Source of the DNA: Gemmatimonadales bacterium
Lineage (GTDB): Bacteria > Gemmatimonadota > Gemmatimonadetes > Gemmatimonadales > GWC2-71-9
Length of the DNA: 64,000 nt
NCBI GenBank assembly: GCA_037189525.1
Contig: JBBCJC010000002.1
Coordinates: 194,286-258,285 of the forward strand
Reading direction: 5' to 3'
Shown: positions 36,665 to 62,199 of the stretch, piece after piece
Position numbering within the stretch: the stretch's first letter is position 1
Layout of the letters: every line of letters starts with the position of its first letter
The notes under the pieces: generated by a model
The model's input: the letters and a program-made list of their open reading frames with translations, nothing else
Database searches by the model: none
Told to the model about the DNA's origin: nothing
Position numbers and translations under genes: made by a program

Positions 36665-36666
36665 GC

Positions 36667-37443: not shown

Positions 37444-37546
37444 GTAACCTCCCTATGAACCGGGCAAACACCGGCACCCGCACTGTTGCCGCCAGCGAGT
37501 ATATTCCGGTTTCGCGTCCGATCCCAGCCCCACTGAACGGCAGACC

Positions 37547-38689: not shown

Positions 38690-38812
38690 TTGCGATCACA
38701 CCTCTGATTTGGGAGTTTCGCCGGCTTCAACCGGTGGGGGCGGGGGCGGTGTCGGCCCCGCACCGCCCGAACACCCCGCACCAACCAGCAACGATAGAAC
38801 GAACGGACCGAG

Positions 38813-39148
38813 TTAGGTGTTGTCCTTGATCGTGGTAGACGTGCCGTTGGTCTTGACCGAACTGATTCCGCCTTCACACGAATCGGCGGAGGCATACATC
38901 TGACTGGTACCGATCACCTGGGAATTGGCAGCCTTCAAGTTGAAGTAAAACTTGCCGTTGGAGGCCGTGTTGCGCTCGTAACGCTCATCGGCGCCACAGT
39001 TGGACTGCACCGACGCAATCCCGTTTTGCGCCGACGCCTTGGCCTTGTACAGCTCGCTGTTGAGGATGACCTCGCCGTTTCCGGCCTTCAAGACGAACTT
39101 GAATTGTCCATCGGCACTCGTTGCCAATTCATACCATCCAGCCATCAT
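38813..39148 (-). CDS. YegP/DUF1508 tandem-domain protein
   Basis: 111 aa. It has two repeats of the F.F.LKA.NG.VI..S..Y.....A..GI.SV pattern: QFKFVLKAGNGEVILNSELY...AQNGIASVQSN and KFYFNLKAANSQVIGTSQMY...CEGGISSVKTN. Confidence 0.85.
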   Translation of the reverse strand: MMAGWYELATSADGQFKFVLKAGNGEVILNSELYKAKASAQNGIASVQSNCGADERYERNTASNGKFYFNLKAANSQVIGTSQMYASADSCEGGISSVKTNGTSTTIKDNT

Positions 39149-39321
39149 TTGCCTCCTCTGGGTCGATTAGCACCTGCTGTAGATATCGGCACATCATGGC
39201 TCACGCCAGGCAAGCCGGTACCGATGTGATAGGATAGCCCCCAATCATAGTCACCTCGAAGCCGCCGAGCCTGTATCTTACGAGCCCCGCGACTTCACTC
39301 GAGCCCAATCCAGGTCAGAAG

Positions 39322-46627: not shown

Positions 46628-46640
46628 GATTTCGGCGGTG

Positions 46641-48494
46641 CTAGCCTTCCGTTCGACCACCCGATGCGTCGGCTCGGTGCGTGGTATCGAAAACGAGCCG
46701 GCTCGCACCCTCACCGTCACTCACCCGTTTGCAGCGGCCGAGCCAGAGGAGCGACCGGCCGCCAAGCCATCGGGTGTGCTGGAACGCCCGCTCCACCAAC
46801 ACGCCGTCCCGCGGCACTTCCCCGTCTTCGATCCGAAGCGGCGGCTCGCGGGTCACGTCGCCCGCCGGATCACTGCGTAGCAACTGGCCACGCGGATGGA
46901 TCAATTCGGGATCGTCCTGGCCTTCGACGAAGCGGAGGAGCGCGCGCCGCTCCAGTTGCACCGCTCCCGAGCCCGCCGTGCCGCCGGCCGGTACCGCCAC
47001 GAACGGGATCCAGTGGCGCGGCACCGGTGACGCCAGTCGATAGCTGAGCAATGCCTCGGCCGGCGCATCCGGCATGACCTGGCGGAGCGGGTCCTGATTC
47101 GGCTCCCGATAGCGATCGAGCCTATCACCCGAGACACCCTGGACCACGCGCTCCACTCCCCAGACGACGTTGGCCATCTCGTCACGAAAGAGCGCCACCG
47201 CTTCGACCGGTGCGCCCATCTCGACCCGGGGTAAAGCCGGTGGCAGGAACAGCAGATCGCGCAGATAGGCCGGCGCCCCGGGTTCGGTGGCCAGTTCGAA
47301 CATGGACCAGCGCGACCCGTCCGGATTGCGGGACGGCCCGACCGTGATGATCTCGCCGAAGGTGTCGCGTACCGTACAGGAGCGGACCCGCGTGACCGTA
47401 CCGACCGGCAGATCGACGGGGACGAGAAACCAGTCATCGCCGTAGGCCAGGCCAAACTCCACCAGCAGGAGCCGCGTGAGATCGGTGCGGCTGGCCTCGA
47501 GCTGCGCCAGGTTGACGCGGGTATCCTCGAACTCCCAGAACCGGCTGGCCGGCATGCCCGGGTAGCGCACGGCCGACGGCAGCATGGCCGGCTGGGGAGG
47601 CCGCGTCGATTCCGGCGGTGTCGCCGCGCGCCCCAGATCGGGCCCGGCCGCGGCGCGGAAACTGTACCAGTCGAGGCGACCATCGGTGTATTCGTCCGCC
47701 ACGAGGGTGACCGGCCCCGCCTCCATATGCGCACCGAGCGCCAGGCCGTACTCCAGCCGCGCAGGGTTCCAGGCGCCGGTATCCTCGGCGGGATCGGTCA
47801 ATCCACCGTCGTACCACGCCAGCCACCGCATCGCGGCCCGGATCACGGCCGCCCGCCGCGCCGCCGGGATGGCCGGGGCAGCGGGCAAGGTCCCGATGGT
47901 GCCGTCCGCCCGAACCCGCGATCGGAACGACCGGGCCAACGCCGCCCCGTCGAGCACACCGGCGCCGGTCAGTTCGGCCAGCGCCGCACCCTCGGGGTCG
48001 GCCGCCGCATCGGCAGGCCGCTCGATCCGCATCAGGAAGGGTTCGTGCTCCAAATAGCGCGCCGCCATCGCTCCAGCTTGCTCGGCATCGAGGCAGGACA
48101 GAAAATGGAGTCCTGCCTCGACCCGCAGACGCGGGTGGCTCCGCCGCACCGGCTCCTGTTCGATCATGACCTCGAGCGGCAGGTCGAGCGTCGCGTAGTC
48201 GACGGCCGCGGCCGCGGCATCGCGGGCGGGCGGCACACCCGCGTGATAGCGCTCGATCGGCGCCGCCTCGACATCCACCCGGACGTCGATCGGACTCCCG
48301 CCGTCTTCACCGGCCAACTCGAGCATCTGCCACTGTCGCCCGATCAACCAAAGCGGGTCCGCCAGCTGCGCCTGAAGACCGGGACCGAGATCGGGCGTGG
48401 CCGGCACTACCTCGAGCCGCGACCAGGTGGTGATCGAAGGCCGTCCTTGCAGCAGCTCCGCAGCGAGGGTCGCGCCCCGGACGACGAAACTCAT
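46641..48494 (-). CDS. Hypothetical 617-aa protein, fifth gene of the giant-protein operon
   Basis: ATG overlaps the upstream stop (ATGA). It has no signal peptide. Landmarks are DPLWLIGRQWQMLELAGEDGGSPI, RFWEFEDTRVNLAQLEASRTDLTRLLLVEFGLAYGDDWFLVPV and a C-terminal GRCKRVSDGEGASRLVFD. I count one Lys in 617 aa. Confidence 0.8.
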   Translation of the reverse strand: MSFVVRGATLAAELLQGRPSITTWSRLEVVPATPDLGPGLQAQLADPLWLIGRQWQMLELAGEDGGSPIDVRVDVEAAPIERYHAGVPPARDAAAAAVDYATLDLPLEVMIEQEPVRRSHPRLRVEAGLHFLSCLDAEQAGAMAARYLEHEPFLMRIERPADAAADPEGAALAELTGAGVLDGAALARSFRSRVRADGTIGTLPAAPAIPAARRAAVIRAAMRWLAWYDGGLTDPAEDTGAWNPARLEYGLALGAHMEAGPVTLVADEYTDGRLDWYSFRAAAGPDLGRAATPPESTRPPQPAMLPSAVRYPGMPASRFWEFEDTRVNLAQLEASRTDLTRLLLVEFGLAYGDDWFLVPVDLPVGTVTRVRSCTVRDTFGEIITVGPSRNPDGSRWSMFELATEPGAPAYLRDLLFLPPALPRVEMGAPVEAVALFRDEMANVVWGVERVVQGVSGDRLDRYREPNQDPLRQVMPDAPAEALLSYRLASPVPRHWIPFVAVPAGGTAGSGAVQLERRALLRFVEGQDDPELIHPRGQLLRSDPAGDVTREPPLRIEDGEVPRDGVLVERAFQHTRWLGGRSLLWLGRCKRVSDGEGASRLVFDTTHRADASGGRTEG

Positions 48495-51400
48495 GTGATC
48501 CCCTTCCCCATGACCGCAGTGGCGGGGAGCGCCTGCGTCAGTCCGGCAACGAGGTCCCGGAAATCGAACGAGGGCACGTCACGCTGGAAGTTGTGGGACA
48601 GGTACGTCATCGGGAGGAACTGACCGAGTCCCTGGAGATCGGCAGGACCGACCATGCGCAGCTGGGCGAGAGTCCCCGCTTCGCGCACCACCTCGATCAG
48701 CTCGTCGGTCGACCAAGCCGGCGCCGCCCCATTGCCTGGTACCGCGAGGAGGACCGCCTGGGAGGCGCGGCTCCCCGGCGCGTCGTAGTGGAACGCCAGA
48801 CCGGTGGTCTCGGTTGCCCCAGGAATCGTTTCGACCCACTCATCAGCCACGATACCCGCCAGGTCCGCATCGAGATCGGCGCCGGCGGGCGCATACGCCA
48901 CAATAGCCAGCCGCGCCTCACGCGGTTTCGAACCTCCGTCCGGCAGCCCCATCCAGGGCGTACCGTCCCGATGCGGGAGCTGCCAGGCCCGGAACCGCGC
49001 TGCCGGCACCACGCCGCGAACCAGCTCCTGCCCGGTGAGCAGCCGCTGCACCGGCTCGACGCCGGGTCGAACCATGCCCATCCGCTGAATCCATTCCCGA
49101 ATGACGAGCCCATCGCCCACCAGCGCGGCGCGATCGTCGTCGCTGGCCGAGAGCTCGCTCGAACCGGTTCGGAAGGCGGGCAATACGGGGAAGGCTTCGC
49201 CCAGCACAGTCCGGATCCGGGCGACATGATCCGGTTCGCCCTCGGTATCCTCCAGCTGATCCAGCGCCGCGACCGCGGGTCCCAGCACCGCGAGGGCAGC
49301 GACAGCAATCGGACGTAGCTCCGCCGCTGCACTGGGAAGAGGCGGCGGATCGAATCCGGCAGCCTTGGCCTTGGTGATGGCGCGCCGGAGCGCGGCGGCC
49401 GTGGGATTACGCGCGGCAACCACGTCCTCGAGCGCCTCGAACGCGGCGCGCGCCGCGGCCGCGATCCGATCGGCGCGGGTTCGCAGTTCGGCCACCCGAA
49501 TGCCCTCCTCGGCCGGTTGCTCTGGCAACGCGAGGTCCGTCGCCGTTGCCGTCCGGCGGCCTTGGAGTAATGCGGCCGCCCGTTGCAGCAACAGTTCGGT
49601 CGAACGGAATCCCAAGGTGCCGGCTGCTGCCCCCGTCGGCGGCCCGGCCAGCACCTCCAGCGTGGCGCCCTCACCCGCCTCGGCGAGATGTCCGGCCCAA
49701 TGCTCCCGCAACGCCGTCTCGAGCCCGCTCTGCCCGCCGGCACCCGGACTGCTCGCAGTAACCAGAAGCGAGATCGGCGACCGCTCGAGATCGGTTACAA
49801 CCGCCGAGAGTTTGGTAAGCTCCGCACCGGCCCGAACGATGCGACCGGCAAAGCGGATCTTTGCCGGCGCGCCCAGCAGCCCCGCAACCCACGCATTGAC
49901 GCGTGGCTCCGCCTGCGCCCGGGCATCCCGGAGCGCGCGCCAGCCGGCACCTTCGTCGGTCGCGGAGAGGAGGAGCAGCAGGCGGTACTGGCAATCCGAT
50001 CCGCTCCGAGTGGTCCGCGCCACAGCCAGATCGACCGCGCGCTCCTGCCGATCGAGTATCGCCAGAGCCGCCCGCGCTCCCGCTGGGCGGCCCAACACCA
50101 TCTGATGCACCGATTCCGCCACGACCAGGTCACTCACGGCATCGAAGCCGTCGTCGATGGCTGTCAGCTCCGCAGTGAGCCCGTTCCGGTCGGCCGGGGT
50201 GCTCGCGCCGAGCTTGGTCAGGACGGCCGCGGGATTGCGCCGCCACTGCTCGAGCAGGGCGACGCCATCCACCACGTCGCGCGCTGCACTCTGTTCGACC
50301 GGTCCGGTCGGCGGCGGCTCGCCGGGACTGCGAAACGGCGCCAGCTGCCGGAGCGGATAGATGAAACGCGCCAGGCGGGCATCGCGATCGCGCAACCCGC
50401 GTTCCAGCCGGTAACCGAGCAACGCCGCAAGCGATTGCCCGCGCGCAACCCCTTCGAGCAGCGTCAGACCGCGCCGAACCCGGGTCGAGGTCAGATCGAT
50501 GTTGAGGAGTTCCCGCTTCCCGTCCTCGTCATGCCGGTGCGCCAGATGGCCGCTCCGCAGGATGGCGAGCGTTTTGGCCTGCTCCAGCGACGGCGCATGG
50601 AGGTACCCCAGACTTTCCGGCTCTCGGTCGGGCCGGACATCGAAGACCCATCCGTACCCGCCGAGGTGAACCCCATCAGCCCGCTCCTTCCGCAACTCCT
50701 TGAGCCGCAGCGTGGCAAGCGACGTCACCCAGGCATCGAGACGGGTGGAAAATCCGTCCAGCACACCCCGGAACGCCCACTCCACCTCGGCTGCGGGGCG
50801 CGTCGCGAGCGCTTCCAGTGCCGATACGAACCCTGCCAGCTGGGCAACGTCCGGGTCCGCGCGCCGGCCCCGCTCGTTCAGACGGTGCGCCACATGTTCG
50901 GCGACAGTGCGCTGCCCGGTCGTTGCGGGGATGACGAGATTGGCCAGTTGATGTGGCGTCGAGACCGTGACGGCATCCCCCTGCCCGGCCGGCGCGGCGG
51001 TGAGAAACATCATCTCACCGGCACGGAGGGCGGCCCGGGTCGGCGCGGCCGTGCCTCGACGCGCCTGGTCCGCAGCAACCACGCGCGCCGCCGCCCGATC
51101 GATTTCCAGCACGGCGGCGTGAGCAACCAGCGCTTCCAGCAGGGTCGGCGCGTTCTGCCGATTCGATAGCTGCGCTCTGCCATCGGGCGCCCGAACCAGC
51201 GCCGCGATCTCGGCCAGATAGGCGAGCGGCGCGTCGTCAGGATGATCGGCCGGACGGGTCCACGGCACCGCGAGTGGGAACGACCGGGGATCGGTGGTAA
51301 AGTGCTGCAACCGCACCGGCGCCGAAAAGCCGCCCAACTGGCGTCCCACCATGCCGGCCAGCACCTGCTGCGCCGTCGCGTGAGCTTCGAGCCCGGTCAC

Positions 51401-53023
51401 GTTGGTCTGCATCTCGGGCCCGTAGACGTGCCGGAACCGCGCCCGGCTCGCCACCGGCGCCTGCTGGAGAATCCGCGCCAGCTCCGTATCGGGGTCGCGG
51501 TCGGGCCCGAGCCGAGGCACGGCGGGAAGCGCGGCATTCCAGGCAGCGCGGAGGCGCTGCAGGAGCTGATGCAGACCGCTTTCAAAAGGATCGCCGGTTT
51601 GCGAGACAAATTGACCTCGCGCCATAATGGGCAGCACCCCGTACGGTTGCGGCCCCGTCCGGAACGCCGGAATCGGCCCGCCGGGTCGCACATGCTGGAG
51701 CACGTGGCCGCGGGCCTGCGCGACCGTAGCGTCATCGAGCAGCGGGTCCATCAGCTGATCGAGATAGTAACCCGCGGTGGCCTCCCAGACCGCCGTGAGC
51801 ACGAGGCCGGCGGTGGCCTCTTCGCTCGATGACGCGCGTGTGGCGTGCTCGAGCCCGGCCTTACCTGCCGGCAATCCCAGAGCGGTTTCGAGCACCCGCG
51901 CTGCCGAGCTGGCGCCCAGCTTGGGCAAAGGCGCCGCCGGATCGAACGCAGCCGTCAGGTCGGCATCTTCCGGGGACCCGGCCCGCGCCGCTTCGGTCGA
52001 GTTGGTTGGCGTCCCGGCCGCCGGAAAACCGAACCCATCGGCATGTACGTGTCCGCGGAAGAGATCGGCCAGGTCGGTTGCAGCCTGCTCCGGTGTTTGC
52101 GTCCAGTCCACCCCGACCACCAGCAGCTGATCGAAACCGAGTTGCAGGGGTCGGCTGTCGAGCATATCAGCCGCTTCAATCGTGACGGCGAGCCCCTGCG
52201 CAACGGCAGCGGCGTAATCCACCATCCAGCGAGCCGCAGGATCGAGCGGCAGACCCTCGTCTGGAGTGACGGCCTCCTCGGTGTCGTCCGAGTCAGCCAC
52301 CGGATCGACAGCCAGACCGACAGCGACCGAATCGGGCACATGCTCGCCCCATTTCCGGGCCGCCACCTTGACGCCGCGTAGACCGACGATCAGCCATCGA
52401 TCCGGCAGCGCACGAGCATGGGCACCCTCGCGCCAGGCCGCGTCGCGCAGCGTCGGATCAGGAAACGCCGGCTCCGCAGACGTACCAGCCGCCTCCTGGT
52501 TCGTCGGCGCCGTCGCATCGGCGACCCAGCGCGCTCGCCGCGGACCGAGCATGCGGGCCAGTTCCTGCCACGCCGCCGTCGTTCGGTCCCTTTCGCCGGC
52601 CCAACGCTGAGTCCAGTACCATCGCCCCGCGTCCACTTCGGCCTGGGTCAGCGCGGGCTCATGCTGATCGACATGAATCTGATCAGGAAAGATCCGGACC
52701 CGGAGCGCCTTTCGGTCGGCGGTGAATCGGGTCTCCAGTCGCACCGGCAGGAGCGCGATCGGATAGCCGGCTGCGAGCCCCGCCACCAGTTCGTCGGCGC
52801 CGCGGTCGCCCTCCATTTCGTTACTGAGTTCGCGAATCCTGTCGCGGATCGCATCGAGCCGGCTCCGTCGGGTGACCACGTCGCGCGCGAGCGTCGCCAC
52901 TCGGGACGGGGCCGCCGAGCGCTCGGCCGCGCTCAGAAGCCGCGCCGCGCGGGCCAGCGCCGCTTCCGCGTCGGCCAGGTCGGCGCGGGCCCGCTCGAGT
53001 TTGGTGAGTCGCGAGTCGGGCAT
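48491..53023 (-). CDS. Hypothetical 1510-aa protein, fourth gene of the giant-protein operon
   Basis: ATG 53023 lies 2 nt after the upstream stop; the track start at 53212 would overlap the previous gene by 187 nt. It has an N-terminal coiled-coil-like stretch (LTKLERARADLADAEAALARAARLL...) followed by LLPVRLETRF...RIFPDQIHVDQHEPALT. No P-loop is seen. Confidence 0.8.
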   Translation of the reverse strand: MPDSRLTKLERARADLADAEAALARAARLLSAAERSAAPSRVATLARDVVTRRSRLDAIRDRIRELSNEMEGDRGADELVAGLAAGYPIALLPVRLETRFTADRKALRVRIFPDQIHVDQHEPALTQAEVDAGRWYWTQRWAGERDRTTAAWQELARMLGPRRARWVADATAPTNQEAAGTSAEPAFPDPTLRDAAWREGAHARALPDRWLIVGLRGVKVAARKWGEHVPDSVAVGLAVDPVADSDDTEEAVTPDEGLPLDPAARWMVDYAAAVAQGLAVTIEAADMLDSRPLQLGFDQLLVVGVDWTQTPEQAATDLADLFRGHVHADGFGFPAAGTPTNSTEAARAGSPEDADLTAAFDPAAPLPKLGASSAARVLETALGLPAGKAGLEHATRASSSEEATAGLVLTAVWEATAGYYLDQLMDPLLDDATVAQARGHVLQHVRPGGPIPAFRTGPQPYGVLPIMARGQFVSQTGDPFESGLHQLLQRLRAAWNAALPAVPRLGPDRDPDTELARILQQAPVASRARFRHVYGPEMQTNVTGLEAHATAQQVLAGMVGRQLGGFSAPVRLQHFTTDPRSFPLAVPWTRPADHPDDAPLAYLAEIAALVRAPDGRAQLSNRQNAPTLLEALVAHAAVLEIDRAAARVVAADQARRGTAAPTRAALRAGEMMFLTAAPAGQGDAVTVSTPHQLANLVIPATTGQRTVAEHVAHRLNERGRRADPDVAQLAGFVSALEALATRPAAEVEWAFRGVLDGFSTRLDAWVTSLATLRLKELRKERADGVHLGGYGWVFDVRPDREPESLGYLHAPSLEQAKTLAILRSGHLAHRHDEDGKRELLNIDLTSTRVRRGLTLLEGVARGQSLAALLGYRLERGLRDRDARLARFIYPLRQLAPFRSPGEPPPTGPVEQSAARDVVDGVALLEQWRRNPAAVLTKLGASTPADRNGLTAELTAIDDGFDAVSDLVVAESVHQMVLGRPAGARAALAILDRQERAVDLAVARTTRSGSDCQYRLLLLLSATDEGAGWRALRDARAQAEPRVNAWVAGLLGAPAKIRFAGRIVRAGAELTKLSAVVTDLERSPISLLVTASSPGAGGQSGLETALREHWAGHLAEAGEGATLEVLAGPPTGAAAGTLGFRSTELLLQRAAALLQGRRTATATDLALPEQPAEEGIRVAELRTRADRIAAAARAAFEALEDVVAARNPTAAALRRAITKAKAAGFDPPPLPSAAAELRPIAVAALAVLGPAVAALDQLEDTEGEPDHVARIRTVLGEAFPVLPAFRTGSSELSASDDDRAALVGDGLVIREWIQRMGMVRPGVEPVQRLLTGQELVRGVVPAARFRAWQLPHRDGTPWMGLPDGGSKPREARLAIVAYAPAGADLDADLAGIVADEWVETIPGATETTGLAFHYDAPGSRASQAVLLAVPGNGAAPAWSTDELIEVVREAGTLAQLRMVGPADLQGLGQFLPMTYLSHNFQRDVPSFDFRDLVAGLTQALPATAVMGKGIT

Positions 53024-53025
53024 CG

Positions 53026-56007
53026 TCAGCCGATCAGGTGTGAGGCGTGGATGGCCACCCGGGCCGGCTGCTGCAGCATCAGCGCCGCCTGGTGCGCAGC
53101 GTTCTGCCCGAACTGCGCCGTGCCCGCCGTATGACCCTGCAACGGGTTCTGGTCGAGCACCAGATAGCGACCGGGTCCGGTGCCGGCATCGAGCCACGTC
53201 GCGCCGCGCCATTCCGCGGGCAGCGCGGCAATCGCTCGGGGTCCCGGTTCATCGAATCCGAACCGCGGTTCGGTAGGCTGCTCCTGGATCACGAAGAAGA
53301 ACCCATCACCCGCCACCGCCTCTTCGTCCGTCAGGTCGAAGCCCGCAAACGCGAGATCGGGTTCCAGCCGGCCGGTGAAGACGGGAGCCCGCAGGTCGTC
53401 GCCCGTCGGGTTCCGCTTGAGCCGGCCCGCCGCGGCGCGCCAGGCGTAGAGCACGGCATTCGGATACCGCGACAGGAGCCGGCCGCGCACCAGCAGCACC
53501 AGCTGCCCGCCAACCGACACGCCGCTATGACTGCCTAACACAGAGTTGTCTCGCCAGCGATGGATCGGTTCGATATCGGGCCGGCCGTCGATGCGGTCCC
53601 AGAAGTACCGGAGCGCGGTAGCTCGGCCATCACTCGGGAAGCGGCGCCAGAGCAGCTCGCCATTGAGCTCGGTGTTTGCGCCGGCAAGGAATGCCTCGAT
53701 GAACCGCGGATTGGTTTCGAGCAGCGTGATGGCGTTCGGCGGAATCCCGTCCGCCCCCGGCAGGAACCGGTTCCGATCGGTCTCGGCCAACAGCCGATAG
53801 AGCGGCGTCTCGATCACCGGCGCGGCCATCACCCGGTCGAGCGTCTCCGGCACCCGGATGGCCTCCATCCCGGCAAGATCGAGTTGCCCGGCAACCGAGA
53901 CCATGGCCCGGATCCGCTTCGGCACCGTCACCGCGGGATCCGTCGCCGATCGGACATCCGCAGCCAGCGCTGAGAGCTCGAGCGGCACCAGCGGCGCCCG
54001 GGGCGTCGCGACATCGACATGGAGCACCTCGAACGTCTGCGCCCGCGCCGTCTCGAACCGCCGCACTGCGGCCGCAGCCTTCACCAGCCCCTCGACCGGA
54101 GCAGTGGTCCGACCGAGTCGTCCGCCACGCGCTACCCGGAACGGGCCACCGGAGGTCGTACCGGTCGTCCGCGTCAGGATCACGGTCCCATCGGTGCGGA
54201 GCGCGGCATCGAGCGCAGCCCGGGTAACCACACCCTCGGCGCCAAGATCGCTGCGTGCGGCCAGGACGGGATTCTGTGCCCGCGTACCGGTCAGCGCTCG
54301 CGCCGACGTGCGCAGCAAGGCAAGCTCGTCCCGGTCGACCTCCAACGCGAGCCCAAACGCGGCGAGCGACACCTTCGAGGTTCCCATCGGCTCCGGCACG
54401 GCGGCATTCAGCGCGACGCTGCCCAGGATACCATCGGGCACGAACCCCGCCGGATCGACACCGCTCCAGCCGGCGGCAAACATGGCAACCATCTTGGTCC
54501 GCGCCGGCGCTCGGCTGCCGGTGCGCCGAGCCAGGCGTTTCAGAATCGGACTCTGGCCGCTGGTGAGGCGCCGCATGGCCGCCCCGACCGCCGCATCGGG
54601 CACGCTGCTGCCCGCGATACGCCGTCGCGCAACCGCCCCCGCCGATCGCACCCGATCGAGCAGTGGCGCCGCAACCGTCGCGAGTCGATCCGGATCCAGC
54701 GGCGCCAAATGCCGTGTGTGCAGCTTGCGCAACCCTTCGAATGCCAGTCGTCCGCGGCTCAGGAGTTCGTTGGCCTTCAGGATATCGCCGACCTGATCCC
54801 AGCAGACCCGCATGAAGTCTTCCTGATACGTCCGCACCACCTGCGCACCGAGGCCCGCTGCCACCCGGGCCCGCGGATCGAGATTGAGTGCGCGGAACCA
54901 GGGCGGCGCGTCATCCGGCACCAGATAGCGCCGAGCATGCTCCGCCGCGTAGAGCGGGGGCGCCAGCGCTCGGGTACGCGCCTCGCCGTCATCGGCGGCG
55001 CGCAGCCGTTCCGGCGCCTCGACGATGTCCCGGAGCCAGGTCTGGAACGCTTCCGCAATCTCCTCCAGCGCCGGCGGCCGGCCGCTCGGCGCCCGCAGTA
55101 CGCCGTCGAGCGTGGTCATCGCGTCGGCCGGCGTCAGGGTGAGCCCCGGCACGTCCGGCGCCGCAGCGCCCAAATACATCGGCTCCGCACCAACCGTGGC
55201 GGGGTCAGATTGCATCGGCCGAAGTTCCCGCGCCAGCGACTCGAAGTCTCCGCCGGGACCGGTCGCAAACTCCCAGTGGTAGTACACCGGCAGCACCAGA
55301 TCGCTGGACTGGTTCGCGTCCCACGCCGGGGCCAACGTGGCGTTGGCATCGGGAGGATTACCCACGCCGCGCAGCCGTCCCACCTCGAACGCCGGAACCA
55401 GACACGCGGCATACCGCCGCCCGGCCACGAGTCGGCGCGGGCAGACCAGTCGCGACACGTTCCGCTCCGGCCGCTCGGCCAATTCGCCGGCGAGTGCCGC
55501 GGGCGCCGTCGCCTCGGTCAGCAGCTGCGCATGGGCCCAGGCCCAGCTTTCGGCCAGATCCGGCAGTTCCGTGGCGACCGCCTCGCGAGGCACGATCACG
55601 ATCGGGAGCGGCGCCCCCCGCGGCAACGTCGGCGCAGCGACCACCTCCAAATCGACCACGACCAGCACACACCAAGGCTTCAGTTGCTCCGAGCCGTCCG
55701 GTCGCGCCGGCGTGAACAACCAGGGAAAGTCCGGCGGATCGAACTCGATCGCCGCGCAGTAGTTGGGTTCGGCGTCCGTACTCCCCCGCGCCGGGTCGGT
55801 GCGCACGATGAGCCGGGGATCGACGCCCAGCACGTCACCGGGGCCGATGAGTTCCAGGTTGATCTGATGCTCGCCGAGATTGGAGACGGTGAGCGCTACC
55901 CCCACGCGAGCCCGGGCCGGCAGCGGCGTGGTACCGTCGTCGACAGCCTCGACCTCCGCGACCAGGCCGCGTCGGGTCCAGGGCAGAAATCGATAGGCAT
56001 CGGCCAT
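53026..56007 (-). CDS. Hypothetical 993-aa protein, third gene of the giant-protein operon
   Basis: ATG lies 2 nt after the upstream stop and is preceded by GGAGGAGG. Landmarks are MADAYRFLPWTRRGL, EPNYCAAIEFDPPDFPWLFTPA, LLETNPRFIEAFLAGANTELNGELLWRRFPSDGRATALRYFWD and FFFVIQEQPTEPRFGFDEP. Confidence 0.8.
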   Translation of the reverse strand: MADAYRFLPWTRRGLVAEVEAVDDGTTPLPARARVGVALTVSNLGEHQINLELIGPGDVLGVDPRLIVRTDPARGSTDAEPNYCAAIEFDPPDFPWLFTPARPDGSEQLKPWCVLVVVDLEVVAAPTLPRGAPLPIVIVPREAVATELPDLAESWAWAHAQLLTEATAPAALAGELAERPERNVSRLVCPRRLVAGRRYAACLVPAFEVGRLRGVGNPPDANATLAPAWDANQSSDLVLPVYYHWEFATGPGGDFESLARELRPMQSDPATVGAEPMYLGAAAPDVPGLTLTPADAMTTLDGVLRAPSGRPPALEEIAEAFQTWLRDIVEAPERLRAADDGEARTRALAPPLYAAEHARRYLVPDDAPPWFRALNLDPRARVAAGLGAQVVRTYQEDFMRVCWDQVGDILKANELLSRGRLAFEGLRKLHTRHLAPLDPDRLATVAAPLLDRVRSAGAVARRRIAGSSVPDAAVGAAMRRLTSGQSPILKRLARRTGSRAPARTKMVAMFAAGWSGVDPAGFVPDGILGSVALNAAVPEPMGTSKVSLAAFGLALEVDRDELALLRTSARALTGTRAQNPVLAARSDLGAEGVVTRAALDAALRTDGTVILTRTTGTTSGGPFRVARGGRLGRTTAPVEGLVKAAAAVRRFETARAQTFEVLHVDVATPRAPLVPLELSALAADVRSATDPAVTVPKRIRAMVSVAGQLDLAGMEAIRVPETLDRVMAAPVIETPLYRLLAETDRNRFLPGADGIPPNAITLLETNPRFIEAFLAGANTELNGELLWRRFPSDGRATALRYFWDRIDGRPDIEPIHRWRDNSVLGSHSGVSVGGQLVLLVRGRLLSRYPNAVLYAWRAAAGRLKRNPTGDDLRAPVFTGRLEPDLAFAGFDLTDEEAVAGDGFFFVIQEQPTEPRFGFDEPGPRAIAALPAEWRGATWLDAGTGPGRYLVLDQNPLQGHTAGTAQFGQNAAHQAALMLQQPARVAIHASHLIG

Positions 56008-56009
56008 GG

Positions 56010-59000
56010 TCAGGCCTCCTCCTGCTGCTCGACGACACGGAGCGCCGCCCGATCGGCCCGCGCACCGAGCGCAGCCTGCGCCAGGCTCACCGACCGGATC
56101 CCTGCATCGGACAGCACCACGGCCTCGGCCGGCGCATTGAGAGTCTCCGCCGACACCACCGCGAGCGCCGGTGCCGTCACCGCGAGGCGGGGGGCAACCG
56201 CCGGACCGCCGAGCTCGCTTCGGATCGGCGAACGCGCCACGGCGCCCGCTTTGGCCTGCCAGTTCACCGTCGCCGTCGACAAGGCGCCAAGCTCTGCCAG
56301 CTCCGCACGCAGCCAGGCCCTCGGCCGAGTCGGCTCCTGGACGCCGGAGAGATCGAGATAGAACGTTTCGTAGTCGAGGTCGCCCGACACGGCGGGACCG
56401 GCCGAGAATCCCGGGCTGCCCACCGCGACACCCGCCGGGAGCGGTTCGAACGACGGCAGAGACAATTGTTCCTCGGGCGAAACATCGAAGAAGTGGCTCC
56501 GCGCAAACGACTCGGTCACCACCGGCGGTTCCTGCAGCACTCGGCTCCCGATTCGCAACCCGGCCAGATCGAACCGATTGGCGCCCTGGACGGCAGTTTC
56601 GCCGAATCGCTGAAGCGTCAGGTTGAACGGCACCACGCGCTGGGTGAACGACAGCGCGGCAAGCGGATGCGCCGGCACGGCATCGGGCGTCGCCCCGCTC
56701 GCGAGCGTCGCCAGCTCATCGGCGCCCGCGGGAAGCGCGGCCCGCCAGTTTCCGGGATCCCGTAACGACTCGGCCAGCAGCCCAGCCACGTCCGTACTCC
56801 CGTCGAGCGCCGGGGGCGCCGCCTCGCCCCAGTCGATGTCGAACGATTTACTAATGTCCCACCAGAGGATCTCGAACGTCGCCGTGCCCCAGAGCCGCCA
56901 GTAGCCGGGGCCCTGCAGCGTAGCCGCGACGTCGACCCCGGCGAGTGAACGCCCTTTATAGGTGACCCGCGCCACGATCACGACCTTGAGCACGAACATG
57001 TCGCGGGTGAACAGACCATCGACCTCGAGCTTGCCCTCGAGTCCCACCGGACCAAGCTTGGCCTTGGCCGACCCCTTGAAACCGATCTGGAACGAGTTGG
57101 AGGTGACGGCCAGGTAACCCGAGATCTCGATCGTGAATCCGCCCCGCTTGATGGGCGAGATGCCGAGCCGGGCCAGCGACGACGGCATCCCGGGCGGGAG
57201 ATCCTTGAAGTCGGGATGGAAGCCGCCGAACGCGAGCAGGAACGCGCTCGTTTCGCCCCAGTCGATGCGCAGCAGGAAGGAGCCCTGGAGACTGAGCCCG
57301 CCGATCTTCGAGTCGCGCAACTGGGCCAGGAGCCCGAACTGCTTCGCCACCAGATCGAGGTGGCCGAGCACGTCGACCTTGAGCTGCAGGATCGGCTTGG
57401 CGGGCGGCTCCGGCTTCACCACACTCACCGTGCCGAAGAGGACGAGCCGCGCCAGTTTGATCTCCTGCTCACCTGGCAGAGCCCCGTCGATCTGCGCAAT
57501 GATGCCGAGCCGGGCCGTCACCAGCTTCTTCGAGAGATAGCGAATCTCCACGAACGGCCCGACCGTGAGGCTTTCCGCGCTCACCGGGAACGCCGTTCGG
57601 AGCCGCGGCAGGATCCGGGGCGCGTCGGCCACCGGATCTTTCGGGAAGAGAATGTCGTCCAGTACCCCGCTCTTGAGACCGGCCTGGAGCGCGGGAACGT
57701 CCGCGCCGTGATTCAGACCGATCATCCCGCCCACGCCGTTCAGCGTGAGCCCCCAGAAGAGGGGATATCCCTTATCCCACTGTACGAAGAGGAGAAACAG
57801 CACCGACCATGTAGTGCGCTCCTCACCAACCGGCGCCTTGGTCGAAATGATGACCAGCGCCTTGAGCTGCGGCTTGACGAACTTGATGTCGAGCACGCCC
57901 GCGTACTCGCCCGCTGCGGGATCCCACCAGAGGAAGCCGCCGCCCTTGATCGGTCCCTTGGTAATCGAGAGCCCAAGTCCTTTGGGCGACAGGAACCCGG
58001 CATCGTAGCCGAGCCCACCGATCCGATGCGCGGGCGTCTCGTCGTCCTCGTCGCCGATCAGCGCGAGGTCGAGGCGGAAGCCGGCCCGGTCCACCACCGC
58101 GGTGAACGGACCAAGCGGGAAGGCGATCCCCGCCGCCAGCGTCAGGGCCAGGCTCCTGGGCCCCTTTCCCTTTTCGAGGCCGAGTTCGAGATAATGGAGA
58201 CTGAACCGCCCCTTCGAGGTGGCGACCGGCAGCCGCACCACGAAGCGAGTTCCACCCTCCAGATGCACACCGGTCGACGAGTCCAGCACCAGCGCCGTCG
58301 AGAATGTGCTCCGCACTTCGGCGCCCGACAGGTTCTTGAGCAGGCCGTCACTCTCGCCGAAAGCCAGCACCAGGGTCGCTTCTTCCGCACCGAGGCGGAG
58401 GCGCGCACCGTCGGAACTGGCCTCACTGGCGACGCTGAGCCGGTTGATCTCGATCCGGCTCCCGGTCTTCGAACCGATCCGGAAAGCTTTGTCCCGTCCT
58501 TGGCTCCAACGAACGCGAAGCTGCGCCTGCGGATTGGTCCCGGCCCGAAAGCCGACTGGCGACACCAGCAGATTGAGGGCGTCGGCCAGCGCCGTCTGCA
58601 CCACGAACCGATGCTCGCCGGTGCCGACGTCGAACCCGACGCTCCCGCTCAGCGAAACGACCGCGCCTCCGCCATGACTGCCGGGAATGGGCACGATCGT
58701 GAGGCCGACGGCCAGTTCCGGATTGTCCAGGTCGTGCAGCACGAGGGTCCCGGCTCGGCCGGTGGCCAGATCCGCGAGTGGCGTGGGCGAGTCGGGCTCG
58801 GGATCCCACCCGTAGTGAACCCGGAGCCCCAGACCGAGCTTCTTGAGCGGCTCCTCGAACCGCGGCGCAAGCTTCCACAGCCCGATGCCCGTCAGGGCTG
58901 CCCACCAGTCGAGACGAGGGCTGTCGCTTTCCACATCCGTGAACGCGGTGAGCAGCCGGTTGAGCGCCAGCTGCTTTACGGCTTCGGGGTCTTCCGTCAG

Positions 59001-59372
59001 GACACCGAGCGCCCGCCCCGCCGCCGCAACGCGCGGGGCATGCAGCTCCAGCAGCTCCGCAGAGGAAGTTTCCGCGATGATGTGGAAGACATCCCAGCCG
59101 CTCAGGTTGCCGCGGGCCAAACCCCCGCACACGGCGACCAGCGTCTGCCCCACCATCAGCAGGTCGTCGAGCACCGCCTCGGTCTTTTCCCGGCTCCGCG
59201 CCAGCACCTGCCGCTGCTCGTCCGTCAGCTTCGCACCGGTCTTGAGGCCGAGCTCGGTTTGGACCCGAATCTGCTCGGGGGAGTCGCCCAGATACTGCTC
59301 CAGCCAGAGCCCCATCCGATCGACCAGGGTCTTGATCCACTCGAGCAGACCGGTGTCCTTGTCCTCAGCCAT
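56010..59372 (-). CDS. Hypothetical 1120-aa protein, second gene of the giant-protein operon
   Basis: The start overlaps the upstream gene by 8 nt (ATGGCTGA). It has a helical-looking N-terminal quarter and a long beta-strand-patterned body with LAFGGFHPDFKDLPPGMPSSLARLGISP and FEILWWDISKSFDIDWGE. It is comparatively Lys-rich. Confidence 0.8.
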   Translation of the reverse strand: MAEDKDTGLLEWIKTLVDRMGLWLEQYLGDSPEQIRVQTELGLKTGAKLTDEQRQVLARSREKTEAVLDDLLMVGQTLVAVCGGLARGNLSGWDVFHIIAETSSAELLELHAPRVAAAGRALGVLTEDPEAVKQLALNRLLTAFTDVESDSPRLDWWAALTGIGLWKLAPRFEEPLKKLGLGLRVHYGWDPEPDSPTPLADLATGRAGTLVLHDLDNPELAVGLTIVPIPGSHGGGAVVSLSGSVGFDVGTGEHRFVVQTALADALNLLVSPVGFRAGTNPQAQLRVRWSQGRDKAFRIGSKTGSRIEINRLSVASEASSDGARLRLGAEEATLVLAFGESDGLLKNLSGAEVRSTFSTALVLDSSTGVHLEGGTRFVVRLPVATSKGRFSLHYLELGLEKGKGPRSLALTLAAGIAFPLGPFTAVVDRAGFRLDLALIGDEDDETPAHRIGGLGYDAGFLSPKGLGLSITKGPIKGGGFLWWDPAAGEYAGVLDIKFVKPQLKALVIISTKAPVGEERTTWSVLFLLFVQWDKGYPLFWGLTLNGVGGMIGLNHGADVPALQAGLKSGVLDDILFPKDPVADAPRILPRLRTAFPVSAESLTVGPFVEIRYLSKKLVTARLGIIAQIDGALPGEQEIKLARLVLFGTVSVVKPEPPAKPILQLKVDVLGHLDLVAKQFGLLAQLRDSKIGGLSLQGSFLLRIDWGETSAFLLAFGGFHPDFKDLPPGMPSSLARLGISPIKRGGFTIEISGYLAVTSNSFQIGFKGSAKAKLGPVGLEGKLEVDGLFTRDMFVLKVVIVARVTYKGRSLAGVDVAATLQGPGYWRLWGTATFEILWWDISKSFDIDWGEAAPPALDGSTDVAGLLAESLRDPGNWRAALPAGADELATLASGATPDAVPAHPLAALSFTQRVVPFNLTLQRFGETAVQGANRFDLAGLRIGSRVLQEPPVVTESFARSHFFDVSPEEQLSLPSFEPLPAGVAVGSPGFSAGPAVSGDLDYETFYLDLSGVQEPTRPRAWLRAELAELGALSTATVNWQAKAGAVARSPIRSELGGPAVAPRLAVTAPALAVVSAETLNAPAEAVVLSDAGIRSVSLAQAALGARADRAALRVVEQQEEA

Positions 59373-62025
59373 GGGTCAGCTCCGGATGCTCCGGTGCGCG
59401 TGCGAGCGGAAGGACATGTACGGTGACGTCGATCGGCAGCGCGGAAGCCCGATCCTCCGCGGACTTGAGCGTATGGGTCACCACAATCTCGTCCGTCGCT
59501 CCGGTGAACCCGACGAGGCCGATGTTCGACTCGAAGATGATCATCCGGGTGTGCTCGATGAACGTGAGCGCGGTGGTGGAGTGCCGAGCCGCTACCCGCG
59601 CATATTCTTCGAGCAGCGGATCGGGGTCGGTGTCGCCCGCGGTAATCGTCAGCTCGCCGCCCACCAGTTTTGCCGGCTGGATCGAGAGGTCCAGATCTTC
59701 ACGCGGCCTGGGGTCCCGTGCCGGTGTGATCTGCCAGGCCCAATCCGGCTTTTTGTCTGCAGGAATCGAGGTGCCCGCCGGCCAGCCGTCGGCCGGCACG
59801 ATCGACGGCCGCTGCTTCATGCGCACCAGGCGACCGATCCCCGGAGCCGCGCCGCCGGGTACCACGATCGGCGACAGCCCTTCCCAGCCCAGCCTGACTC
59901 GGCTGGGTATGGGCAGCACGCCCTGCAGCAGCCCGTGGGTTCGCACGATCGGCAGAAAACTCTTGGCCGCGGGGTTATGGAGCGCGCTCGCCGTGAGCTG
60001 CACGATCCGTGATGCCGCTTCGTCCTTGCCGCCCTTCCAGTAGTCGAGTGACAGACTGGTCCCGTAGTGCACGTCGCCCGACAGGATCACCACTCGCGGG
60101 TGCGTGGCCACCCGCGCGATGAACTCTTCGAACGCCAGTTCATTGGCCGCCCACGACTCGACGTCGTTGACGAACCGGCCTTCGATCTGCCCCGTCGGGT
60201 TGCACTCGGAGTAGTCGAGTCTGGCGGCCGAGAGCTTCACGTCGTGGACCGCATCGGCCAGTGGCTGCGCAATCTGCTCGATGATGCTGGGGCCCAGCAC
60301 CGGTACCGGCGAGACGAGGAGCAGCAGTTCGCGCTCCGGCGGCGCCGAGGTGCCCGCCGGCAGCTGGGTCTTGAGACTCTCGCCCAGCAGACTGGCCGGC
60401 GTCGGCAGCGCGTTGGGAAAGCCGCGCCGAGTCCTGGTGTCGAGCACGACGGTATGGTGCTTGATGCCTGGTAACTGATAGTGCCACTTGATCTGCTTGG
60501 TGGCGTCGGGTTCCGCGCCCAGACCCAGGCACTGATCCAGCGCCGCGGTGTCGGCAGCGGGGACGTGGTGATTCGGCGCGAGGACCTTGGCGGCCTCGGT
60601 CAGGAATGCGGCATTGTCGCCGCTGGCTGCGAAGGTATCGGGATCGTTGCCCCAGCCCTGGAAAATCCCATACGCCAGGAGCCCGTTCCGCAGAATAGCA
60701 CGGCCGAACGCACTCCGGTTCACATTGGTGATCCAGTCGCGGCTGATGTTCCAGTCGTCGGTCACCTCGTGATCGTCGAAGATCATGTAGGTGGGCACGT
60801 TGGCGAGCGCCCGCGCCACCTTGGGCACCGTCGACCGGAAGTTCATCACCTCTTTCCACTGCCTGGCGAGTTTCGGCGCCTCGTCCCGGGTCCAGGCGAC
60901 CACGCTCGGATGATCGCTGCACAGCTCGGGCTGGGTCAGCACGTCGGGTCGTGCCGTATCGGGGCCGAGAGCGCCGAGCATCTCCGTCACGCCGAGCTTA
61001 CAGATCGGACCACTGCCGGGGCGCGCCGGTTTGGGACCGGGGCTCAGGCAAAGCTCCTCCGACCAGGGGCGGTCATCGGGTGACCAACCGCACTCACCGC
61101 ACAGGACCACCGGCAGCGGCCGCCAAACACGCGGGCTCCATACGGCCAGATACATCGCCGCGTACTCCCGAAACGTCAGGAGATGATTCTCCGCGTCGCT
61201 GGTCGTGAACTTCGCATCGGACTGCAGCACCTTCGCACGCCGCGCAACCGGGAAATTCGCGATGTGCGCATCGATATCCTGACCTGGCGATGTCGGGGTC
61301 CCACCGAGGGTCAGCCGCTCGTGCACGACCGCGGCGTCGACATCGGTGCCGTTTTGCAGATCCGTCCCCAGCCCGCTGAGCATTTGGAGCAGGGCGCCCG
61401 CCACGTCGTCCGCATAGATCTGGTCGCCGGTGAGGAAAAGCTGCTGCGGACGCGAGAGCGGATCGCCTCGCGTCCGGCCGATCTCATCGTCGAGCCAGGC
61501 CAGGGCGTCGGGGCCGTACGCATGCGGCTTCCGGCAGCTCCCGTGCACCAGCTTGAGGCCGGCGATCGTTTCCGCCGAGAGCACGAACGACGGCAGCTGG
61601 CCATCGTTGTCGTAGCCCAGGCGTTTGGTGAGCGGGGCCATCGGGTGGACCCCCGGTAGCCGACTGTCAGGTTTTTCGTCAGTGAGCAGACCGGCGGTCC
61701 GCAGATCGCTCGGGACCCCGTCGCCCTCGAACCCGAGCCCATAGGAGTAGATAACCCCGGCCCGAAGTGGCGCCGCTTCCGCCTTGGCCGTTACCACCGC
61801 CACATGCAGCGCGCGCCCGAAGGCGACGGTCTGGAGCGACCCGGTGGCGACCGGTTCCTCTCCGGACTCGACTGAATTGGCGGTGTCACCCGCCTGTTGT
61901 TGATTGAGCCAGACCTTGAGGGTGACGGTGGCCGGAACCGAGAGGGCAATCCACACCGACACCCGCCGGGGATCGACCCGTCGAAGGATGGGACCCGCCA
62001 GGACGAACGGAAGTTGCGCCGGCAT
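59365..62025 (-). CDS. PhoD-like metallophosphatase domain protein (886 aa), first gene of the giant-protein operon
   Basis: The N-terminus GPILRRVDPRRVSVWIAL resembles the PhoD N-domain. The metal-ligand blocks are HGSCRKP, LFLTGDQIYADDV, MIFDDHEVTDDWN and VVILSGDVHYG. No Tat or Sec signal is present. Confidence 0.75.
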   Translation of the reverse strand: MPAQLPFVLAGPILRRVDPRRVSVWIALSVPATVTLKVWLNQQQAGDTANSVESGEEPVATGSLQTVAFGRALHVAVVTAKAEAAPLRAGVIYSYGLGFEGDGVPSDLRTAGLLTDEKPDSRLPGVHPMAPLTKRLGYDNDGQLPSFVLSAETIAGLKLVHGSCRKPHAYGPDALAWLDDEIGRTRGDPLSRPQQLFLTGDQIYADDVAGALLQMLSGLGTDLQNGTDVDAAVVHERLTLGGTPTSPGQDIDAHIANFPVARRAKVLQSDAKFTTSDAENHLLTFREYAAMYLAVWSPRVWRPLPVVLCGECGWSPDDRPWSEELCLSPGPKPARPGSGPICKLGVTEMLGALGPDTARPDVLTQPELCSDHPSVVAWTRDEAPKLARQWKEVMNFRSTVPKVARALANVPTYMIFDDHEVTDDWNISRDWITNVNRSAFGRAILRNGLLAYGIFQGWGNDPDTFAASGDNAAFLTEAAKVLAPNHHVPAADTAALDQCLGLGAEPDATKQIKWHYQLPGIKHHTVVLDTRTRRGFPNALPTPASLLGESLKTQLPAGTSAPPERELLLLVSPVPVLGPSIIEQIAQPLADAVHDVKLSAARLDYSECNPTGQIEGRFVNDVESWAANELAFEEFIARVATHPRVVILSGDVHYGTSLSLDYWKGGKDEAASRIVQLTASALHNPAAKSFLPIVRTHGLLQGVLPIPSRVRLGWEGLSPIVVPGGAAPGIGRLVRMKQRPSIVPADGWPAGTSIPADKKPDWAWQITPARDPRPREDLDLSIQPAKLVGGELTITAGDTDPDPLLEEYARVAARHSTTALTFIEHTRMIIFESNIGLVGFTGATDEIVVTHTLKSAEDRASALPIDVTVHVLPLARAPEHPELTHG

Positions 62026-62199
62026 CTCTCCCGCACTGCTAAGCGAGCGTCAAGATTCTGACCAGCGAGATCAGGCTACTATGATCGCGCCGATGACGAA
62101 GAACCGCCAGATGGCGAAATTCGGTCGCGCCGCGTTGCGGCAGGTTTGGGGCGGCGCTAGGCTTCCGGCCGATTAACCCCAGCTGCGAGCCATCAGACC

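Follow-up and report, generated by a model that had tools for sequence, protein, structure and literature searches.

We describe a cassette of giant proteins found in a 64,000-nucleotide stretch of a Gemmatimonadales bacterium genome (assembly GCA_037189525.1, contig JBBCJC010000002.1, positions 194,286 to 258,285; hereafter the window, numbered from its first letter). Five consecutive minus-strand open reading frames (ORFs) between 46641 and 62025, encoding proteins of 886, 1120, 993, 1510 and 617 amino acids (aa) (P1 to P5, about 5,100 aa in total), form one operon-like cassette of a so far undescribed family. The first-pass annotation, made from the sequence alone, had read these genes as a five-gene unit encoding a multi-subunit, giant-protein system of unknown function. 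The latter part of this reading is supported by the recurrence of the P2 to P5 order in no fewer than 10 phyla as well as in Halobacteria, while the unit itself proved to be 4+1 rather than five fixed genes: P2 to P5 are invariant, and the position ahead of them (slot 1) is occupied by an interchangeable hydrolase gene. We conclude that the cassette is genuine and encodes a multi-protein system that is widespread, mobile and as yet uncharacterised, with a clear modular logic.

Distribution and conservation of gene order

A scan of 185,579 species-representative genomes, using two peptide patterns only, returned 108 loci, 80 of which were kept. Colinearity was examined by tblastn with the five window proteins in loci with enough flanking sequence, and P2-P3-P4-P5 were colinear and on one strand in essentially all of the 80 loci. 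The at least 10 phyla represented included Actinomycetota, Gemmatimonadota, Chloroflexota, Cyanobacteria, Verrucomicrobiota, Acidobacteriota and Nitrospirota, along with Alpha-, Beta- and Gammaproteobacteria and 'delta' proteobacteria. Whether the gene order recurs in other phyla was a question raised with the first-pass annotation, and the answer is clear: an order conserved in dozens of unrelated genomes is not a chance arrangement. Methyloterricola oryzae (Gammaproteobacteria), Aggregatilinea lenta (Chloroflexota) and Streptomyces roseifaciens each carry the full series of PhoD-like, DUF6603, ~1,100, ~1,550 and ~620 aa proteins in otherwise unrelated surroundings, and intergenic gaps were 85 nt or less in the Methyloterricola, Aggregatilinea, Streptomyces and JGI/ENA contigs.

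All five genes were also found in order on megaplasmids of Halobacteria (Salinigranum and Halalkalicoccus, and also Natrinema and Halobellus), which implies inter-domain transfer. The whole five-gene cassette lies at 5829-25465 of the Salinigranum marinum plasmid NZ_CP100462.1 and is likewise present on a Halalkalicoccus plasmid. Further plasmid copies, often with integrases or transposases next to them, were observed in Streptomyces, Nocardia, Rhizobium, Paraburkholderia and Gemmatirosa. The identity of P3 to the window copy was approximately equal (45-51%) in Gemmatimonadota, Actinomycetota, Proteobacteria and Cyanobacteria, which fits horizontal spread and not vertical descent. The cassette is a horizontally mobile accessory element, and its family is very large. 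An exhaustive profile search placed P5 relatives in 5,368 clusters at 50% identity (2,148 with E <= 1e-30), and homologues numbered more than 1,247 for P3, 1,098 for P4 and 518 among the candidates scored for P5. All of these homologues, those of P5 included, are unnamed or annotated as hypothetical, and the P3 and P4 homologues lack Pfam domains.

From a composition like that of the flanks, the first-pass annotation had suggested that the locus was resident rather than recently acquired. The similarity to the host in guanine-cytosine (GC) content at third codon positions (GC3) stands, but the overall GC content of the cassette is 0.689 vs 0.655 in the rest of the window (standard deviation 0.015 per 2 kb, a difference of about 2-3 standard deviations), and the cassette is therefore slightly off-composition. 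It is not simply resident, being a mobile accessory element that is often plasmid-borne or located beside integrases.

An interchangeable hydrolase gene in slot 1

P1 was found by tblastn in only about half of the 80 loci. When the slot-1 class was read from the same-strand gene lying directly 5' of the DUF6603 gene, a PhoD-like protein was observed in about 40 loci, a PLD-like protein with an N-terminal CarboxypepD_reg-like sandwich in 7, an S8 subtilase in 6 (with two more found via independent gene calls) and a NAL1/trypsin-like protease in 3. Nothing conserved occupied the slot in 11 loci, the Rubrivivax, Sphaerotilus and Aquabacterium group, where no conserved gene was found upstream of the DUF6603 gene. 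Two plasmids carried further arrangements. On the Nocardia plasmid an S8 peptidase of 1,236 aa sits downstream, after P5, and on the Streptomyces longwoodensis plasmid the slot-1 protein is a PhoD-like domain fused to PG_binding_1. None of the slot-1 enzymes inspected has a signal peptide.

The window protein P1 matched PhoD (PF09423) with 31.3 bits, above the Pfam cut-off of 27, and its N-terminus gave a weak Pfam match to DUF7800, a beta-sandwich. Four blocks were invariant in 27 P1 orthologues, one of them archaeal: S163-C164-R165, G200-D201-Q202-x-Y204-A205-D206, D417-D418-H419 and G650-x-V652-H653. The sole PDB relative was Bacillus subtilis PhoD (2YEQ, E = 0.006), a weak profile match spanning the DDHE and GDVH motifs. 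No Tat signal was found in P1, the N-terminus of which (MPAQLPFVLAGPILRRVDPRR) enters the DUF7800 sandwich directly, with no hydrophobic h-region after it. The invariance of the PhoD-type motifs in the 27 orthologues suggests that P1 is a divergent PhoD-type metallophosphodiesterase and probably active. We also observed a Cys-rich insertion (VVLCGECGWSPDDRPWSEELCLSPGPKPARPGSGPICKLG) at residues ~310-400 (window 60800-61100), within the least conserved, length-variable block of the protein, which spans 20-100 residues among orthologues.

The exchangeable N-terminus of P2

P2 matched DUF6603 (PF20248) over nearly the whole model (positions 4-501 of 502; E = 5.4e-84, 283 bits vs a cut-off of 27), and this region was kept in every locus examined. 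RefSeq labels the homologues as 'DUF6603 domain-containing protein', and no PDB relative of P2 was found by sequence or profile search. The first-pass annotation had seen assignable motifs in the first gene only; the PhoD motifs of P1 were confirmed, but P2 must be added to the list on account of DUF6603.

The residues ahead of DUF6603 varied with the enzyme in slot 1. BLASTP between P2 N-termini detected 1162 of 1521 pairs within the PhoD class, and none of the PhoD-PLD or PhoD-S8 pairs. P3, P4 and P5 were as similar across slot-1 classes as inside the PhoD class; for P3 and P5 the median normalised scores were 0.28-0.32 between classes vs 0.29-0.31 inside the PhoD class. Since the P2 N-terminus tracks the enzyme class and P3 to P5 do not, the N-terminal ~380 residues of P2 are exchanged together with the hydrolase, as one module swapped on a constant core. 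In genomic terms, such a swap bears the mark of a cargo or effector accompanied by a putative cognate adaptor.

The core proteins P3, P4 and P5

Scans of P1 to P5 against Pfam, NCBIfam, PADLOC and PHROGs returned only PhoD, DUF7800 and DUF6603; P3, P4 and P5 had no Pfam or meaningful NCBIfam match. By profile, only two family assignments hold, the predicted PhoD-like metallophosphatase P1 and the DUF6603 protein P2. Searches of PDB chains with P2 to P5 (phmmer and profiles) found nothing below E = 0.03. The earlier reading had listed signatures of the type VI secretion system (T6SS), extracellular contractile injection systems (eCIS), toxin-complex (Tc) or RHS proteins and BREX, DISARM or Druantia-type systems as absent, and our scans against the same four collections agree. 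Nor did PDB profile searches with all five proteins, or Foldseek searches with models of P3 and P5, yield a confident hit to a characterised machine.

P3 has a nearly invariant N-terminal F-L-P-W-x-R-R-G-L and a well-folded C-terminal domain (~730-990). Between them lies a hypervariable segment (Table 1), 41 to 340 residues long across 46 homologues; in the S. longwoodensis homologue an FG-GAP repeat was found within additional residues that separate the N- and C-terminal parts matching P3. P4 has an N-terminal coiled coil at residues ~5-90 (nt 52754-53011), followed by L-P-V-R-L-E-T-R-F ... F-P-D-Q-x-H-x-D-x-H-E-P, and only coiled-coil noise was obtained from PDB searches and from a Pfam scan of 27 P4 homologues. 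P5 begins with a conserved peptide, W-S-R-L-E ... D-P-L-W-L-x-x-R-Q-W-Q, followed by a helical domain and a beta-rich body. We noted two sets of invariant residues: His159 (ESWAWAH) in P3 with its only invariant cysteine, Cys202 (YxACLVPAF), 43 residues apart, and the D114/H117/H121/E129 cluster (FPDQxHxDxHEP) at residues 114-129 of P4. These may be catalytic or metal sites in proteins to which no function can otherwise be assigned.

AlphaFold2 models were made for P3 and P5 from 46-sequence alignments. The P3 model was of moderate quality (mean predicted local distance difference test score (pLDDT) of 74.8, predicted TM-score (pTM) of 0.59) and the P5 model was reasonable (pLDDT 79.5, pTM 0.77). 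Foldseek found no significant match in the PDB for either, with best E values of 0.64 for P3 and 0.035 for P5 and query TM-scores of 0.08 or lower in both cases. A search of the P5 model against BFVD viral predicted structures gave no fold match (best E 0.014, TM 0.06). The FLPWxRRGL peptide of P3 and the WSRLE...DPLWLxxRQWQ peptide of P5 are kept from bacteria to archaea, yet were modelled as disordered, a behaviour that would suit peptides folding only on contact with a partner subunit. Paralogy among the core proteins was considered and rejected, the hhalign comparisons of P5/P3, P5/P4 and P3/P4 being unconvincing (best, the P5 helical domain vs P4 860-990, probability 21%).

Modules appended to the core proteins

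Some family members carry additional domains, at a small number of permissive positions. In P5 relatives we saw three IPT/TIG domains at the N-terminus, collagen triple-helix repeats at the C-terminus with a globular domain after them, PASTA domains, Ig-like repeats or a beta-propeller, while haloarchaeal P5 ended in two lamin-tail (LTD) domains. P4 was expanded in haloarchaea to 2,322-3,124 aa, with a haloarchaeal surface domain (halo_surf_dom). One Streptomyces plasmid copy had PLD-like, DUF2235, PG-binding and Ig-like genes as neighbours. Module types such as these are characteristic of proteins that bind at the cell surface or outside the cell, and of the receptor-binding parts of phages or toxins, although they are no proof of location.

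The cassette in the window

The five genes are tightly packed (Table 1), with junction spacings of -8, +2, +2 and -4 nt. P1 and P2 overlap by 8 nt (cccATGGCTGAgg / ATGGCTGA). The P2/P3 junction reads caGGAGGAGGccTGAccATGg, in which TGAccATG has GGAGGAGG ahead of it, and the P3/P4 junction reads ggcTGAcgATGc (TGAcgATG); P4 and P5 share a 4-nt ATGA overlap (cacATGAgt). Public contigs with identical sequence carry independent gene calls of 886, 1120, 993, 1510 and 617 aa, and these calls, the ORF positions and the junction reads all bear out the strand, sizes and spacings given in the first-pass annotation. The mechanical ORF of P4 reaches 53212 (1573 aa), longer than the 1510-aa call. We dropped this extension in favour of the start at 53023, as first annotated, because the independent calls on the identical contigs give 1510 aa. 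The summed mass of the five proteins is ~548 kDa, and all five are acidic. A sequence scan found no Walker A motif, credible transmembrane segment or signal peptide in P1 to P5; the highest 19-residue Kyte-Doolittle value was 1.9, within an Ala-rich helix. The earlier statement that none of the five has a signal peptide or P-loop therefore holds by hydropathy and Walker A scan.

Table 1. Positions of the cassette genes and of their notable regions in the window.
Feature	Coordinates	Strand	Description
P1	59365..62025	-	886 aa, variable slot-1 gene
P2	56010..59372	-	1120 aa, DUF6603 protein, core
P3	53026..56007	-	993 aa, core protein
P4	48491..53023	-	1510 aa, core protein
P5	46641..48494	-	617 aa, core protein
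P2 N-terminal ~380 aa	58233..59372	-	varies with slot-1 enzyme; putative docking adaptor
P2 DUF6603 region, residues 386-967	56472..58217	-	beta-rich, conserved Gly/Pro/Phe
P3 hypervariable segment, residues ~600-700	53908..54210	-	conservation 0.25, low pLDDT
Intergenic P1/hom	62026..62199	.	174 nt; operon promoter presumed here

The flanking genes are also as first described, with hom (NAD_binding_3/Homoserine_dh/ACT) divergent from P1 across the 174-nt gap and a Pkinase+TPR gene converging on the cassette, its stop 13 nt from that of P5. The operon promoter presumably lies in the gap next to hom, where no sigma-70-like promoter facing the cassette strand was found and the sole match was on the plus strand, on the hom side. 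A scan of 46000-62600 against Rfam detected no RNA family. Long plus-strand ORFs of up to 780 aa run antisense to the cassette genes (54019-56361, 57216-59426 and 49583-51169). These were taken as artefacts of ~70% GC coding sequence, as their translations are rich in Arg, Pro and Gly and no plus-strand gene within the cassette appears among the independent calls.

Neighbouring genes in other genomes

When ORFs flanking the cassettes were clustered (up to 6 kb away, in a subset of loci), no conserved regulator, immunity, lysis or secretion gene emerged beyond the slot-1 classes. With no other conserved neighbour, the cassette is self-contained. By eye, the contexts inspected were mostly housekeeping genes and not defence islands.

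Individual loci had neighbours of their own. A Gemmatimonadaceae contig (k141_1303229, 1-19152) carries two cassettes in tandem: P4 and P5 of one copy are followed directly by a complete PhoD/DUF6603/P3/P4/P5 series, in which the P4 of the second copy is split into 162 and 1,313 aa. In Methyloterricola oryzae an opposite-strand TIR_2 gene (20703-21659 of the locus) overlaps the gene that comes after P5, at the end of that gene, and is followed by a ShlB/Omp85-type transporter gene; the TIR_2 gene was the only defence-flavoured neighbour seen. Pentapeptide-repeat proteins were recurrent, though not universal, occurring near three cassettes: on the Rhizobium plasmid within a few kb on the upstream side (5970-6833 of the locus), on the S. 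europaeiscabiei plasmid directly after P5 (20715-22673 of the locus) and on an ENA contig ~5.7 kb downstream of P5 (22072-22911 of the locus). Nucleotidyltransferase and pentapeptide genes adjoin the Rhizobium copy. The chromosome of an uncultured Actinomycetes (OY970068.1) carries a PLD-class cassette with two Phage_T4_gp19 tail-tube-like genes just downstream of P5, together with genes for an M20 peptidase and a PG_binding_1 protein (all at 16346-20382 of the locus). The gp19 pair lies 2.8 kb from the cassette and may be a neighbouring remnant of a contractile injection system, unconserved elsewhere.

Phage records and literature

IMG/VR contained no P3 homologue. INPHARED contained no P2 homologue and a single P5 match, an UNVERIFIED metagenomic record of 75% GC. 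That record, MT835531.1 ('UNVERIFIED: Bacteriophage sp.', human faecal sample), is 40 kb long, has P2 (C-terminal)-P3-P4-P5 at one end (30109-39995) and contains two other large ORFs that have no PDB relatives. It is most likely a misassigned bacterial contig. A phage origin of the cassette was rejected, given no PHROG match, no P3 in IMG/VR, no BFVD fold for P5 and no P2 in INPHARED. The literature searched contained no mention of DUF6603, PF20248, DUF7800 or PF25077, and a toxin-complex keyword query of it had no match.

Discussion

The reading we favour, while giving it somewhat less than an even chance, is that the cassette encodes a released particle that attacks cell envelopes with a swappable hydrolase warhead. 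P2 to P5 would assemble into a large particle, the N-terminal domain of P2 would dock the hydrolase as the warhead, and P5 together with the variable P3 insert would form the exposed, target-binding part. The outward orientation of P5 and the P3 insert is suggested by the binding modules, which are added at those positions in other members of the family. Such a particle would act outside its producer, on the envelope of a competitor or prey cell. There a PhoD-type enzyme could cleave teichoic-acid or phospholipid phosphodiesters, a PLD would cleave phospholipids, and the proteases would cleave envelope proteins. B. subtilis PhoD has been reported as an endo-acting teichoicase (PMC7086022). Exit without a signal peptide could proceed as for Tc toxins and tailocins, e.g. 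via lysis of a subpopulation, and no ATPase would be needed because the work would consist of binding plus hydrolysis and not of injection. A bolder form of this proposal, which we regard as possible but a shade more doubtful, is that the cassette represents a new class of nanomachine, not derived from phages and common to bacteria and archaea. This would be a released particle of four giant proteins with novel folds, bearing an exchangeable hydrolase (phosphodiesterase, phospholipase D or protease), an exchangeable adaptor domain on which it docks, and exchangeable receptor-binding modules, that attacks the envelopes of other cells with no ATP, secretion system or contractile or injection apparatus.

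Several points weigh against a released particle. Neither a secretion gene nor a holin or lysis gene was conserved nearby in the clustering of flanking ORFs, and no small immunity-like gene sits beside the hydrolase, P1 overlapping P2 by 8 nt. No cassette protein or fused relative inspected has a signal peptide, sorting signal, Tat motif or PGF-CTERM, and fusions to binding modules occur in a minority of family members. We infer both the assembly of one particle and the docking of P1 on P2 from genomics alone, and a core protein, above all P2 or P4, may have remote kinship to a known machine.

Among the alternatives, an intracellular anti-phage (abortive-infection) defence survives best, and we consider it unlikely. 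Here the core would sense infection and unleash the swappable degradative effector within the infected cell. The sporadic, mobile distribution with plasmid and integrase-flanked contexts would fit, as would the interchangeable hydrolases, which are typical 'effectors' of defence systems, and proteins lacking signal peptides are by default cytoplasmic. The TIR_2 gene abutting the Methyloterricola cassette and the nucleotidyltransferase and pentapeptide genes beside the Rhizobium copy point the same way. However, none of the families in PADLOC-DB v2.0.0 matched P1 to P5 at E <= 1, and in the ~4,200 aa of the core no domain of an NTPase, nuclease, methylase or known sensor was found. The collagen, PASTA, IPT/TIG, LTD, FG-GAP, PG_binding_1 and haloarchaeal surface modules are unlike those of cytoplasmic sensors, and the mostly housekeeping flanks, judged by eye, do not resemble defence islands.

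We find it improbable that the cassette is a large cell-autonomous scaffold, positioning the hydrolase to acquire phosphate or organic nutrients or to remodel the wall or sheath of the producer itself. As phosphate-starvation phosphodiesterases, PhoD enzymes have wall teichoic acid as substrate (PMC7086022). The window copy stands among housekeeping genes with a host-like GC3, and the cell's own wall could just as well be the target of the PG-binding, PASTA and surface domains. A nutritional or wall-remodelling role is harder to reconcile with the occurrence of only 108 loci in the 185,579 genomes of the two-pattern scan, scattered over phyla and often plasmid-borne, or with a slot-1 chemistry that switches from phosphodiesterase to protease. 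Diderms, monoderms and archaea carry the cassette alike, despite their different envelopes, and ~550 kDa of protein with no export signal would be a costly scaffold.

Least probable of these is a relative or accessory module of an injection machine of the phage-tail-like or Tc-like kind (eCIS, tailocin, T6SS or ABC toxin), so highly diverged that the homology no longer shows: the giant parts without signal peptides, the collagen and Ig-like appendages of the receptor-binding type found on tail fibres, the PLD-like and DUF2235 genes beside one Streptomyces copy (domain families known from T6SS phospholipase effectors) and the gp19 pair near one PLD-class cassette are outweighed by the lack in P1 to P5 of any sheath, tube, spike, baseplate, PAAR, ClpV, RHS or TcA domain, by P3 and P5 models matchless in the PDB and, for P5, in BFVD, by the phage records (no P3 in IMG/VR, no P2 and one UNVERIFIED P5 record in INPHARED), and by the want of conserved tail genes near the cassettes, the gp19 pair being unconserved. 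The probability left over from these readings is assigned to something not yet imagined.

We judge the system to be new because P3, P4 and P5 fall into no Pfam family and P2 only into a DUF, no core protein resembles a solved structure in sequence, and neither the literature nor the defence and phage catalogues searched contain the system. Should the genomic inference prove right, thousands of prokaryotic lineages, including soil, freshwater, cyanobacterial and haloarchaeal ones, carry a machine of ~15 kb and 5,000 aa that is absent from the catalogues of secretion, toxin and defence systems. The logic of swapping an enzyme plus its adaptor, together with the availability of cultured carriers, makes the system directly testable. 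Such carriers are Rubrivivax gelatinosus DSM 1709, which has the four-gene form, Sphingopyxis sp. H050, Streptomyces roseifaciens, Methyloterricola oryzae and Gemmatirosa kalamazoonensis. Its study could yield a new mechanism by which microbes antagonise others or protect themselves, as well as new folds and a programmable enzyme-delivery scaffold. Whatever the function, the 4+1 architecture gives DUF6603 and three unnamed families a genomic context and partners.

Comparison with known systems

In function, the closest analogues of the proposed particle are Tc toxin complexes, tail-like particles whose effectors and adaptors are exchangeable, and the umbrella toxin particles of Streptomyces; on the defence reading, they are systems with swappable effectors. 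The cassette shows no domain of the BREX, DISARM or Druantia kind, as no methyltransferase, helicase, PglZ or nuclease domain was found with Pfam, NCBIfam or PADLOC. CBASS, Avs and Lamassu systems resemble it in their sporadic, mobile distribution and in their interchangeable phospholipase, protease or phosphodiesterase modules. The cassette differs from them in having no NTPase, cyclase, SMC-type sensor or PADLOC match, and in the surface-type binding domains of its relatives.

Tailocins, eCIS and T6SS are also built of structural proteins without signal peptides and carry fibre-like collagen or Ig-like modules on a distal subunit. Their hydrolase effectors are swapped with a cognate adaptor, which the P2 N-terminus would parallel, and the PLD-like and DUF2235 genes beside some cassette copies add to the likeness with phage-tail-like systems. 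Nevertheless, no sheath, tube (gp19/Hcp), baseplate (gp25/gp6), spike (VgrG/PAAR) or AAA+ ATPase was found in P1 to P5 with Pfam, NCBIfam or PHROGs. Unlike tail-like particles, the cassette has no PHROG match, and verified phage records contain no homologue of P2 or P5.

A functional analogy can be drawn with the Tc (ABC) toxins: their operons likewise encode giant soluble subunits that lack signal peptides and include no ATPase, and they vary in their enzymatic payload from locus to locus and spread horizontally. No RHS, YD, SpvB or TcdB_toxin_mid domain was detected at E <= 1 (Pfam, NCBIfam), no VRP1, neuraminidase-like or TcA-type domain was found in Pfam, and P2 to P5 had no PDB match. In Tc toxins the payload is a small C-terminal hypervariable region inside a cocoon, whereas the cassette has a separate, full-length hydrolase of 700-900 aa. 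The cassette further differs in having no predicted translocation channel or hydrophobic segment and in its carriers, which are soil and freshwater bacteria and haloarchaea.

At the level of the single enzyme, P1 shares the SC, GDxxYxD, DDHE and GDVH motifs with B. subtilis PhoD (2YEQ) and scores above the Pfam PhoD threshold, which places it in the same family. It is nonetheless a very distant relative (E = 0.006), ~350 aa longer with extra regions, and embedded in a cassette. B. subtilis PhoD is exported by a Tat signal peptide, which P1 lacks.

The umbrella (Umb) particles of Streptomyces are recently recognised antagonistic multi-protein particles of soil bacteria, which the proposed particle would resemble in its large unusual proteins, polymorphic toxic parts and binding modules. 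The cassette has no evident sequence relationship to them, its core matching nothing in Pfam apart from DUF6603, and it occurs also in Gram-negatives and archaea.

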